Source: Paludibacteraceae bacterium (GTDB taxonomy: Bacteria > Bacteroidota > Bacteroidia > Bacteroidales > Paludibacteraceae). Taken from it: a stretch of DNA of 64,000 bases. The stretch lies in NCBI GenBank assembly GCA_045660925.1, contig JAZREU010000005.1, positions 2,334 to 66,333 of the forward strand, written 5' to 3'. Below, one piece after another: positions 7,059-8,594 of this stretch. The position numbers and the translations under genes were made by a program. The notes under the pieces are model-generated. The model searched no databases and was not told the DNA's origin. It worked only from the letters and a program-made list of their open reading frames with translations. How positions within the stretch are numbered: the stretch's first letter is position 1; every line of letters starts with the position of its first letter.

Positions 7059-7113
7059 CATACACGCACCACACAATAACCGCACTATAACCAGACAATA
7101 ACCACACTATTTT
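7059..7113. repeat. Five tandem degenerate 11-bp units
   Basis: Units: catacacgcac cacacaataac cgcactataac cagacaataac cacactatttt. The word is close to that of the array at 40794-40848 (acgcactatac). Confidence 0.8.
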
Positions 7114-7154
7114 GCGCAGTCATAGAACCCCGCGAGAAGATGAAGATATAAAAA

Positions 7155-7178
7155 GAGGGCTGCCTCTCAGCAGCCCTC
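7155..7178 (-). terminator. Intrinsic terminator oriented for the minus strand (downstream of the susD 3' cassette); possibly bidirectional
   Basis: 9-bp stem GAGGGCTGC / GCAGCCCTC with loop CTCTCA. On the minus strand it is followed by TTTTTAT, and an A-run sits on the other side. It resembles the susD terminator at 13787-13809 (AGGGCTGC...GCAG.CCT.TTTTT). Confidence 0.7.
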
Positions 7179-7227
7179 CAAGTATATTTAGAGTAATTCT
7201 AAACTACTTTATTGGGTTGAACAATGA

Positions 7228-7614
7228 TTACCAACCTGGGTTTTGAGTGAGATTTGGATTCAAATCGATTTGACCTTGTGGGATAGGAGCCAAATAATGT
7301 TTCTCCTCAAACACACGGTGATCAGCTGTGCGGCACTCAATGTATCCATGATCACCCTCAGTCAATACAACGCTATTGAGATCTACGTTCCAAGCTTCAG
7401 CTGACTCGATCCAAGCACCTTGAGTTTGCTCTGGATACTTTTGAGTATCGAGCTTATCCAATTGGTGCCAACGGATGAGTGACCAGTAGCGGTCGTTGAG
7501 GTCGAACATCAACTCTACACGACGCTCACGACGAACTTCCCATACGAGGTCACTTACCTCTGTACCACCATTGAGTTCTGCTGCATTGTTTGCAGGGTCG
7601 TTTTTATACGGCAA
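7228..7614 (-). pseudogene. Promoterless 3' fragment (about the last 125 codons) of a second SusD-family gene, inverted relative to the intact susD
   Basis: The translation SDLVWEVRRERRVELMFDLNDRYWSLIRWHQLDKLDTQKYPEQTQGAWIE...HYLAPIPQGQIDLNPNLTQNPGW aligns with the C-terminus of the 12051..13763 product. There is no signal peptide and no N-terminal 450 aa. Homology stops at about 7614, next to the recombinase stop codon (7629). Confidence 0.85.
7466..7498. repeat. Left copy of a 33-bp perfect long-range inverted repeat (partner 13496-13528)
   Basis: The reverse complement of 7466-7498 is CAACGACCGCTACTGGTCACTCATCCGTTGGCA, identical to 13496-13528. The flanking ~30-40 nt on each side are similar but carry synonymous mismatches. 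Confidence 0.9.
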
Positions 7615-7619
7615 TACAA
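7596..7619. repeat. IR-L of a perfect 24-bp inverted repeat pair (partner 8422-8445)
   Basis: The plus strand reads GGTCGTTTTTATACGGCAATACAA, the exact reverse complement of 8422-8445. Confidence 0.95.
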
Positions 7620-7628
7620 TAGGTATAT

Positions 7629-8240
7629 TTATCGTTTTTCGTCTATAAAAGCATAATAGTAATTACGCACAGTATCACGATTAACTTGCAACAAATCAGC
7701 TATTTTCTGAAATGACATTCCGTTTGCTCTCAGCCTTGCTATTTGTTGTTCTTTACCATGTAGTTTGTAACTGCTTTTACTAAACGACCTACCACGAGGT
7801 CTTCCCAATTGCACTCCTTCGGCTTTTTTTATAGCTAAAGCTTCTTTCGTTCTTTGACTAATCAAGTTTCGCTCAATCTCTGCTGATAAACCAAAAGCAA
7901 ATGCAAGTACTTTACTTTGTATATCATCCCCCAACCTGTAATTATCTTTGATAGTCCATACACGACATTCCTTAGTCATGCAAATATTGAGTATCTCCAT
8001 GATCATAAATAAGTTTCTACCGAGGCGTGATAATTCACTACAAATAATGATGTCATTCTTCCTTACTTTTCGAAGAAGATTCCCCAATTGACGAGTTGAA
8101 TAGTTTTTGGTTCCACTAATGGTTTCTTCAATCCAATCATCAATTCTGAGTTGTTGTTTTTCACAAAAACTGTTAATCTCAAAACGTTGGTTTTCTACCG
8201 TCTGTTTGTCGCTACTGACTCTAATATATCCGTAAATCAT
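7629..8240 (-). CDS. Small serine recombinase, DNA-invertase/resolvase type (203 aa)
   Basis: N-terminal catalytic motif MIYGYIRVSSDKQ. C-terminal helix-turn-helix GMSFQKIADLLQVNRDTVRNY. The size and domain order match Hin/Gin/Mpi-type invertases. Confidence 0.9.
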   Translation of the reverse strand: MIYGYIRVSSDKQTVENQRFEINSFCEKQQLRIDDWIEETISGTKNYSTRQLGNLLRKVRKNDIIICSELSRLGRNLFMIMEILNICMTKECRVWTIKDNYRLGDDIQSKVLAFAFGLSAEIERNLISQRTKEALAIKKAEGVQLGRPRGRSFSKSSYKLHGKEQQIARLRANGMSFQKIADLLQVNRDTVRNYYYAFIDEKR

Positions 8241-8367
8241 AACTTAGTAATTTTATTTTACAAATAAGACAATTGACATCATGATTATCTAAAAATATGT
8301 TGTTAAACATATATTTTGCTATTGCAAATAAAATAATTATTTTTTTTCATTTTTTTTGTGATAATTA

Positions 8368-8399
8368 TTTGTTGGTATTAAAAAAAAGTACTAACTTTG
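8368..8399 (+). promoter_or_regulatory. Bacteroidetes sigma-A type promoter facing susC
   Basis: TTTG (8368-8371), 20 nt, TAACTTTG (8392-8399). It lies inside the IR-bounded segment, and IR-R follows about 15 nt after the predicted start site. Confidence 0.7.
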
Positions 8400-8421
8400 T
8401 AGTCGGAATTAGTGTGAGCAG

Positions 8422-8445
8422 TTGTATTGCCGTATAAAAACGACC
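8422..8445. repeat. IR-R of the perfect 24-bp inverted repeat pair
   Basis: TTGTATTGCCGTATAAAAACGACC in the susC 5' leader. Confidence 0.95.
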
Positions 8446-8594
8446 GATTTTAACAAGCGGTCTGTGTACATTGAGGCACACGCACGCGCATATTATTAAG
8501 GTGCTCATTGCCGAGAAGAAAAACAAACTAACAACAAACAATAAAAACAACGTGGGTGAAACTCCCACATAGTATTAACTAAAAAACACACGTT

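Follow-up and report, generated by a model that had tools for sequence, protein, structure and literature searches.

Positions 7596-8445 of a 64,000-nucleotide stretch of contig JAZREU010000005.1 from a Paludibacteraceae bacterium (hereafter the window, meaning that whole stretch) carry an 850-bp cassette upstream of a susC/susD operon. A serine recombinase gene and an outward promoter both lie inside this cassette, between two inverted recombination sites. We read it as a self-contained invertible promoter cassette with its own Mpi-family invertase. The cassette would descend from a two-way toggle between two SusC/SusD pairs, one of which was later deleted from the window copy. We hold this account of identity, architecture and history at roughly three chances in four; it does not extend to present-day flipping of the window copy, which is weighed separately below. 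In three related lineages, the cassette inverts in natural populations.

Architecture of the cassette

A repeat search found a 24-nt inverted repeat whose arms, at 7596-7619 and 8422-8445, are 100% complementary and are separated by an 802-nt spacer. The left arm reads GGTCGTTTTTATACGGCAATACAA, and its reverse complement forms the right arm. The 24-mer occurs exactly twice in the window when up to three mismatches are allowed, and not once in 100 dinucleotide-preserving shuffles. In the composition profile, the GC content is 0.21-0.35 within the cassette and 0.40-0.50 in the flanks. A pattern scan located the promoter motif TTTG-N20-TAACTTTG, which we take to be the Bacteroidetes -33/-7 consensus. 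The same motif is found at the same cassette end in the related contigs L001, L007, L011, L092 and L124. By geometry, the sequenced orientation is ON for susC/susD. A sequence-only reading of this stretch had already described the perfect repeat, a 203-aa serine recombinase with a catalytic domain followed by a helix-turn-helix (HTH), the AT-rich composition, a Bacteroidetes promoter aimed at susC, the ON orientation and the overall likeness to Hin, in which inverted sites enclose both a small serine invertase and an outward promoter. All of these were borne out by the repeat and pattern searches, the Pfam annotation, the composition profile and the geometry of the locus.

The functional recombination site reaches outward past the 24-bp repeat. 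The consensus over all sites collected from the window and its relatives is (T/A)AAAACG-AC-CGATTT (short form (T/A)AAAACGACCGAT), an imperfect dyad around a non-palindromic AC. This is the form expected of a serine-invertase site. The promoter-proximal site (IR-R, the right inverted repeat) is nearly palindromic, with a dyad match at 7 of 10 positions; past its core, the right flank continues as the outer half-site CGATTTTAAC and then as the susC leader. The recombinase-proximal site (IR-L, the left inverted repeat) is a hybrid with a dyad match at 4 of 10 positions. Arm-to-arm identity ends exactly past the core (...ACGACC), whose central dinucleotide lies at 7597-7598 in IR-L. Beyond this point, the left flank is susD coding sequence (CCTGCAAAC..., codons N-D-P-A-N), and the outer half CCTGCAAAC is not site-like. 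IR-L falls in the reading frame of the susD fragment, where it encodes IVLPYKNDP. No further full Mpi-type site was found in the 64-kb window with up to three mismatches. The features of the locus are collected in Table 1.

Table 1. Features of the cassette and of the genes around it (window coordinates)
Feature	Position	Strand	Remarks
Very large secreted-type protein, at least 2285 aa	33-6890		directly upstream; alpha-amylase catalytic domain, CBM26, Listeria-Bacteroides repeats, Fn3-associated domains (Pfam)
Terminator for the susD' stump	7146-7187		GC-rich hairpin and T-run; repeat GGAGGGCTGC..GCAGCCCTCTTTTTAT read on the (-) strand
susD' 3' fragment, apparent stump of the deleted second arm	7228-7595	-	starts at NDP and runs for about 124 codons up to the natural stop; matches Pfam SusD_RagB at profile positions 205-297 of 297
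IR-L, recombinase-proximal site	7596-7619		hybrid of the cassette inner half-site and core GGTCGTTT; susD' coding sequence takes the place of the outer half
Mpi-family small serine DNA invertase, 203 aa	7629-8240	-	Resolvase and HTH domains, catalytic Ser9; encoded within the invertible segment
AT-rich control region	8241-8421		GC about 0.21-0.29; holds the outward promoter
Outward promoter	8368-8399	+	Bacteroidetes consensus TTTG-N20-TAACTTTG (pattern scan); faces susC as sequenced
IR-R, promoter-proximal site	8422-8445		full site TAAAAACG-AC-CGATTTTA at 8435-8452, central AC at 8443-8444
susC 5' leader	8446-8594	+	149 nt; hairpin CGTGGGTGAAACTCCCACA at 8551-8569
susC, TonB-dependent transporter, 1127 aa	8595-11978	+	first gene of the surviving arm; TIGR04056, 851.7 bits
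susD of the surviving arm, 577 aa	12030-13763	+	Pfam SusD_RagB, SusD-like_3

Two further observations concern the sites. The 8-bp core, AAACGACC, recurs a third time within the recombinase gene, at 7782-7789, over codons G-R-S-F of the linker before the HTH, and every close relative examined (L001-L011) has it there too. Constraint on the encoded protein is the probable reason for this internal copy, which is also a potential pseudo-site. Furthermore, the recombinase-side inner half-site (7604-7619) repeats the promoter-side one exactly. In L011 (967-990), the closest relative, the same 13 bp hold eight differences, although the cassette is 95.6% identical and the recombinase dS is 0.13. The identity in the window reads as a discrete patch replacement, possibly by gene conversion.

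The cassette enzyme belongs to the Mpi family

A profile search against resolvase and invertase models matched the recombinase, whose N-terminus is MIYGYIRVSSDKQ, to both the Resolvase domain and the Mpi family. Pfam Resolvase (PF00239) covers residues 2-143 (E = 1e-32), and HTH_23 and HTH_7 fall at residues 155-198 of 203, with one HTH match spanning 165-198. The best solved-structure matches are the Gin invertase (4m6f/3uj3, E = 1e-9), followed by Sin and the Tn3/gamma-delta resolvases. The segment YIRVSSDKQ aligns with YVRVSTNDQ of Gin, with S9 matched to the Gin nucleophile. R7, S9, D11, Q13 and R72/R75 are invariant in an alignment of 16 relatives. The catalytic serine region is thus conserved; its lack of conservation was an outcome that the sequence-only reading had named as speaking against a switch. 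The dN/dS against relatives is 0.03-0.10 (0.09 against the closest one), consistent with purifying selection on the gene.

The NCBIfam model NF009949, 'master DNA invertase Mpi family', matches residues 1-196 at model positions 1-194 of 203, with 325.4 bits against a cut-off of 272. The cassette enzyme is therefore a member of the Mpi family and not a separate kind; the earlier reading had set it apart from Mpi, and this distinction fell. The only recombinase at the locus is of the serine type, not a tyrosine recombinase as in a Tsr0667-type shufflon. Its gene lies between both sites, and not outside its inverted segment as in B. fragilis Mpi.

Inversion in related lineages

Recombinase homologues number in the thousands. 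Contigs were taken for seven groups of homologues whose recombinase is 82-98% identical to the window protein, giving eight groups with the window, and inversion was counted only from flank-swapped contigs with dissimilar flanks. In each of the seven groups, a susC leader adjoins the recombinase gene, and the promoter motif of the window stands at the opposite end of the cassette. In three lineages, the two flanks stay the same but trade places at the ends of the cassette, and the recombinase gene turns with the promoter. The P0024 lineage has one orientation in L001-3 and L006 and the other in L007 and L010. The P0017 lineage has L098-L104 in the first orientation and L105 in the second, and the P0011 lineage has L109, L110, L112 and L117 against L114. 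In the flipped cases, the flanks diverge straight past the core or agree at only 84%, and assembler guesses therefore cannot account for the swaps. Alignment of L001 with L007 places both breakpoints within the 8-bp GGTCGTTT/AAACGACC. A single-nucleotide polymorphism one base outside the core remains with its flank in the relatives, and strand exchange therefore takes place within the 8-bp core. The many short recombinase contigs of about 1 kb were also considered as a sign of heterogeneity within samples; this use was rejected, because long inverted repeats alone break assemblies.

Most relatives possess a second arm. In L098/L099, L109, L112, L119 and L120, a second, divergent susC lies across the cassette, in the order susC(-), cassette, susC(+), and is followed by susD wherever the contig is long enough. 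One promoter would therefore serve either operon. Within one locus, the SusC proteins share about 77-79% identity and the SusD proteins about 65%. The leader and the first susC codons occur on both sides of the cassette, as inverted duplicates, in the closest relatives (L011 = L107, L108) and in the P0024 group. The duplicated leaders form a long imperfect inverted repeat, and the repeat extends outward into the host leader. Taken together, these loci suggest that the ancestral cassette toggled in two directions between paralogous SusC/SusD pairs and did not serve as an ON/OFF switch. The sequence-only reading had proposed an invertible ON/OFF switch. Inversion itself stands, as related lineages show both orientations between unchanged flanks, but the ON/OFF role would not be the ancestral one.

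The orientation data also bear on the reading of the cassette as a mobile element, in which the 24-bp repeats would be the terminal inverted repeats of an insertion-sequence-like or serine-transposase insertion upstream of susC. Terminal inverted repeats around a recombinase gene, the AT-rich composition relative to the flanks and the many homologues on contigs of about 1 kb would all suit such an element. However, the catalytic domain precedes the HTH, and the IS607 model gives only a partial match of 33 bits against a cut-off of 110. Target-site duplications are absent at the window cassette. The recombinase adjoins the susC leader in all eight groups (at least 82% identity, window included), the repeat in relatives extends outward into the host leader and not inward, and orientation changes in place while the flanks stay constant. 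The 24-mer is close to unique: it has a single match among 241 million metagenome records, and the 185,579 GTDB species genomes gave none. A multicopy element was the outcome that the sequence-only reading itself had named as speaking against a switch; the constant position at the susC leader and the rarity of the 24-mer make an insertion of this kind highly improbable.

More distant Mpi-family loci appear to have an analogous layout with the recombinase inside. In L036 (6809-7741, Paludibacteraceae), 26-bp inverted repeats that begin with the AAACGACC core enclose an Mpi-family gene of 73% identity together with a TAACTTTG promoter. On either side stand sialyltransferase-like genes (PF07388), with CMP-sugar and nucleotidyl transferases downstream, which suggests a recombinase-inside toggle for a glycan locus. 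In L080 (6265-7779, Muribaculaceae), susC is present on either side of the Mpi-family gene and a 27-bp repeat runs over the start codons. In L033 (6580-7806, Prevotellaceae), a 22-bp repeat covers the start codons of two divergent genes whose family is unassigned.

Probable loss of the second arm in the window copy

Instead of a second complete arm, the window carries a susD 3' fragment on the recombinase side of the cassette. The open reading frame (ORF) that holds this stump runs over 7228-7614 on the (-) strand and corresponds to the last third of susD. BLASTP gives the stump 82% identity to the intact susD in the right arm of L099, and only 65% to the surviving susD of the window. Over the first 28 residues, it matches the intact susD in the left arm of L098 without a difference, and its 3' untranslated region is conserved with L099. 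The dN/dS of the stump against the intact L099 susD is 0.11, which fits a recent truncation of a working gene.

The homology of the stump to intact susD begins at the NDP codon. At this point, intact arms read CAAAACGACCCAGC (L110) and TTAAATGACCCTGCAAAC (L098), and CAAAACGACCCAGC is a natural copy of the core within susD. On the + strand, GT is present in the pseudo-site as well as in the neighbouring cassette site, which makes them direct repeats, the arrangement needed for a deletion; site-specific recombination between them would remove the leader, susC' and most of susD' and produce the junction seen in the window. We infer that the second arm was removed by a recombinase-mediated deletion of this kind. 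The promoterless susD 3' cassette that the earlier reading had assigned as the target of the flipped promoter is indeed present. However, it appears to be a deletion stump that was fused to the cassette at the crossover, not a designed target.

A fusion at the same codon, with different neighbours, is found in L124/L125, whose recombinase is 82% identical to that of the window. This looks like an independent event at a hot pseudo-site. A single ancient truncation common to the window and L124 was ruled out, because the dS of the window stump is 0.66 to the intact L099 gene and 1.4 to the L124 stump. Recurrent fusion at one susD codon would constitute natural evidence for pseudo-site activity of a serine invertase. 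Arms have decayed in other ways as well. In L001, the leader copy keeps a start codon and runs into an early stop, and in L092/L093 the core is mutated (AATGACC) and the start codon is destroyed. In some samples of the P0024 lineage (L004, L005, L008, L009; e.g. L004:8636-9063), a third, unrelated flank replaces the decayed leader arm at the recombinase-side core. This flank reads AAACGACC-TATTTTTGGCAGTTACATG..., followed by a 121-aa ORF without a Pfam match, and represents another rearrangement with its breakpoint at the core.

The fragment could also be taken for the silent cassette of a susD shufflon, in which IR-L would recombine into the expressed susD and swap its C-terminus. In favour of this reading, the fragment keeps an open frame, lacks a promoter and is a paralogue, in inverted orientation, of the final ~124 codons of the susD downstream; the two share 61-65% protein identity with DNA blocks at 83-86%. 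However, the sole partner of IR-L lies in the susC leader and not in susD, and the expressed susD reads GAACGATCCTAAT at the homologous position, without the ACGACC core. Relatives carry complete second arms rather than fragments, and recent truncation of a functional gene accounts for the low dN/dS. We regard a shufflon as very improbable here and the deletion of a second arm as the better explanation of the stump.

Proposed mechanism and present activity

In the proposed mechanism, the cassette-encoded invertase would bind two (T/A)AAAACG-AC-CGATTT sites and exchange strands at the central AC, flipping a segment of about 0.8 kb together with the recombinase gene and the outward promoter. The ancestral cassette would have stood between two divergent paralogous susC/susD operons, each behind the same leader, and its promoter would have driven either of them. 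The recombinase-side arm would then have been deleted between the cassette site and the susD pseudo-site AAA[C/T]GACC (codons N-D-P), leaving the susD 3' stump and its terminator joined to the core. As sequenced, the promoter would read through IR-R and the leader into the surviving susC/susD (ON). After a flip, it would read into the 124-codon stump and be stopped at the 7146-7187 terminator (OFF), and the recombinase gene would face susC. The flipped left junction would read ...TTGTTTGCAGGGTCGTTTTTATACGGCAATACAA joined to CTGCTCACACTAATTCC. The pairing of enzyme and site, the deletion mechanism and the activity of the promoter are all predicted from these arrangements.

Whether the window copy still inverts at a useful rate is, in our judgement, an even matter. 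The left site keeps only the inner half and the core, and inversion of this copy may be slow or lost. For continued flipping, the arms are perfect over 24 bp, unlike those of the closest relative, the core and the inner half-site are intact, and the recombinase is under purifying selection (dN/dS 0.09).

Several findings weigh against an active switch, or against the account as a whole. The left outer half is CCTGCA, compared with CGATTT in the consensus, and matches at none of the five positions beyond the invariant first C. No assembly with the window copy flipped was found, and exact-protein look-ups (the recombinase, its 100% match P0001, SusC and the 128-aa stump) came back empty. The sole metagenome match of the 24-mer is L011, a two-armed relative of different configuration. 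All three one-armed contigs (the window, L124 and L125) are ON and assembled straight through, which fits a homogeneous, possibly locked, population. A pattern scan of the (-) strand upstream of the recombinase ATG found no canonical -7 box for this gene, whose own promoter must reside in the 8241-8421 control region. As with Mpi, the targets of the enzyme may include, or even consist of, distant sites.

A locked-ON relic would share the anatomy and history set out above and depart from our explanation in the last step only: loss of the left outer half-site would have ended inversion, leaving a fixed promoter and a recombinase kept for targets in trans. We consider this a serious contender, although its chances fall somewhat short of even. 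It agrees with the outer half that is not site-like and with the ON, contiguous assembly of the window, L124 and L125, whereas two-armed lineages are mostly found on contigs of less than 2 kb. The decayed arm of L092/L093 shows that one-arm decay occurs in the family, and Mpi-family enzymes are known to act in trans (PMC4747536). However, the 24-bp arms are identical where the closest relative differs at 8 of 13 bp, which would be odd for a dead site, and the invariant C past the crossover is intact along with the inner half-site and core. Serine invertases such as Cin and Gin are, moreover, known to use quasi-sites at reduced rates.

A further possibility is that the cassette enzyme is the working Mpi-type master invertase of its genome, so that the state of the toggle would set the invertase dose and, through it, how fast other Mpi-type promoters across the genome undergo phase variation. 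We consider this unlikely. If it were true, the switch would be self-referential and hierarchical, with a gene that flips with its cassette and changing read-through into and out of the arms. The enzyme would also remodel its own locus through deletions at the susD pseudo-site, repeatedly making one-way switches out of toggles.

Comparison with known invertible systems

The cassette combines known elements, namely a Hin-like layout, an Mpi-family enzyme and a SusC/SusD toggle. Like Salmonella Hin/hix/fljBA, it places the gene of a small serine invertase together with an outward promoter within about 1 kb of DNA, bounded by short inverted sites with a 2-bp crossover, and one orientation expresses the downstream operon. 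The enzyme, however, is of the Bacteroidales Mpi family. With Gin, the nearest invertase of solved structure (E = 1e-9), it shares no more than the generic small serine recombinase fold. The site core is AAACG-AC-CG and not hix, and the promoter is of the sigma-ABfr type (TTTG / TAnnTTTG). Hin acts as an ON/OFF switch with a repressor (fljA), whereas the ancestral cassette would toggle two flanking paralogous operons.

With B. fragilis Mpi, the cassette enzyme shares its protein family (about 74% identity to Bacteroides orthologues, L065) and the flipping of promoter segments for surface structures in Bacteroidales by a serine invertase. B. fragilis Mpi acts in trans on 13 distant regions and is encoded outside them, head-to-head with tsr19 (PMC4747536, PMC5903667, PMC10403206), whereas the window gene rides within its own invertible cassette. 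The literature thus agrees with the earlier reading that Mpi works in trans and that Hin is the textbook case of a recombinase inside its segment (PMC5903667, PMC4747536).

Inversion also alternates paralogous SusC/SusD outer-membrane pairs in the shufflons of B. fragilis and relatives (Tsr0667-type), where the inverted repeats reach the susC 5' end (PMC4747536, PMC9881135). In known SusC/SusD phase variation, tyrosine invertases move the genes rather than the promoter (PMC4747536, PMC9881135, PMC11892184). A Tsr0667-type shufflon has its tyrosine recombinase outside and a fixed promoter, and large gene-bearing segments are moved. In the window cassette, what moves is the small segment with the serine recombinase gene and the promoter, while both operons of the ancestral layout would keep their places. 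A single invertible promoter toggles two divergent surface-protein paralogues in Campylobacter fetus (sapA) and in Ureaplasma (MBA/UU376). These toggles follow the same logic as the ancestral cassette, but depend on RecA or a tyrosine recombinase, are not known to have a recombinase gene in the promoter cassette and carry other cargo. In the literature searched, which leaves much subscription literature uncovered, neither an Mpi-family gene within its own inverton nor a toggle between two SusC/SusD operons by a serine invertase was described.

In the usual account of phase variation in gut Bacteroidales, promoters are flipped by outside recombinases, with Mpi as a trans-acting master enzyme. 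In the window locus and its relatives, an Mpi-family invertase is packed with a promoter in a portable 0.8-kb cassette that would alternate two SusC/SusD variants, and in other lineages the cassette arms are two glycan-synthesis gene sets. SusC/SusD pairs are glycan importers as well as candidate targets of phages or of immunity. Given this double role, such toggles would offer uncultured Bacteroidales of the rumen and gut a simple means of bet-hedging. The compact layout of two sites, one gene and one promoter could be transplanted for experiments or for synthetic switches in Bacteroidales.

The Mpi family beyond the cassette

A scan of GTDB species representatives for the recombinase gave, among the matches listed, 80 loci at 71-81% identity and one partial match at 84%. 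The closest relatives of the window recombinase are probably outside these 80 loci. Most Mpi-family genes in them have no flanking repeats and no adjacent susC, and abut a type IIG restriction-modification locus. In L012-L091 and L126-L129, a conserved GAGCGATTTTGTGCAGCA... directly follows the Mpi-family gene in most species, in the roughly 130 nt past its stop, and encodes a TaqI_C-like specificity-domain fragment, SWVILSPIEQSIKRKIEAVGTPLKDW. Many Mpi-family contigs terminate 16-100 bp past the mpi stop. An adjacent Eco57I/MmeI-type enzyme of 1236-1240 aa and a spare TaqI_C ORF are arranged in one way in L126-L128 and in another in L129.

In L092 (7095-11893) and L126 (25-4812), purH, purM and a 365/368-aa gene stand beside the recombinase genes at 94% DNA identity, with their order rearranged. 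L092 is a self-contained susC switch, and L126 is a canonical mpi with a restriction-modification locus. Judged by identity to the window protein only (88% vs 78-80%), the two recombinases look like distinct paralogues.

The susC/susD operon and its neighbours

The window is chromosomal DNA of an uncultured Bacteroidales organism and includes the genes for GlyRS, MurF, BamA, RadA and FtsK. Among named matches, its GlyRS is closest to proteins of Paludibacteraceae metagenome-assembled genomes, at about 87% identity. Its susC is 88% identical to the susC beside the L001 cassette. The leader hairpin CGTGGGTGAAACTCCCACA stands about 25 nt ahead of the susC start and is kept in both arms of the relatives L001, L011, L092 and L124. 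An Rfam search of the leader gave no match above noise.

Pfam annotation of the neighbours found no hybrid two-component system (HTCS), SusR-like or extracytoplasmic function (ECF) regulator adjacent to susC/susD, in line with the sequence-only reading; the neighbours are the upstream amylase/CBM26 protein and, downstream, a TetR gene and an outer-membrane efflux-protein (OEP) gene. The cassette switch may therefore be the main local control of susC/susD. The amylase/CBM26 neighbour suggests that the switched SusC/SusD pair is part of a starch or alpha-glucan system. The terminator hairpin at 7146-7187 is convergent with the amylase gene. Between the end of this gene and the hairpin, at 7068-7110, there are three to four tandem 11-bp units, ACCACACAATA / ACCGCACTATA / ACCAGACAATA / ACCACACTAT.

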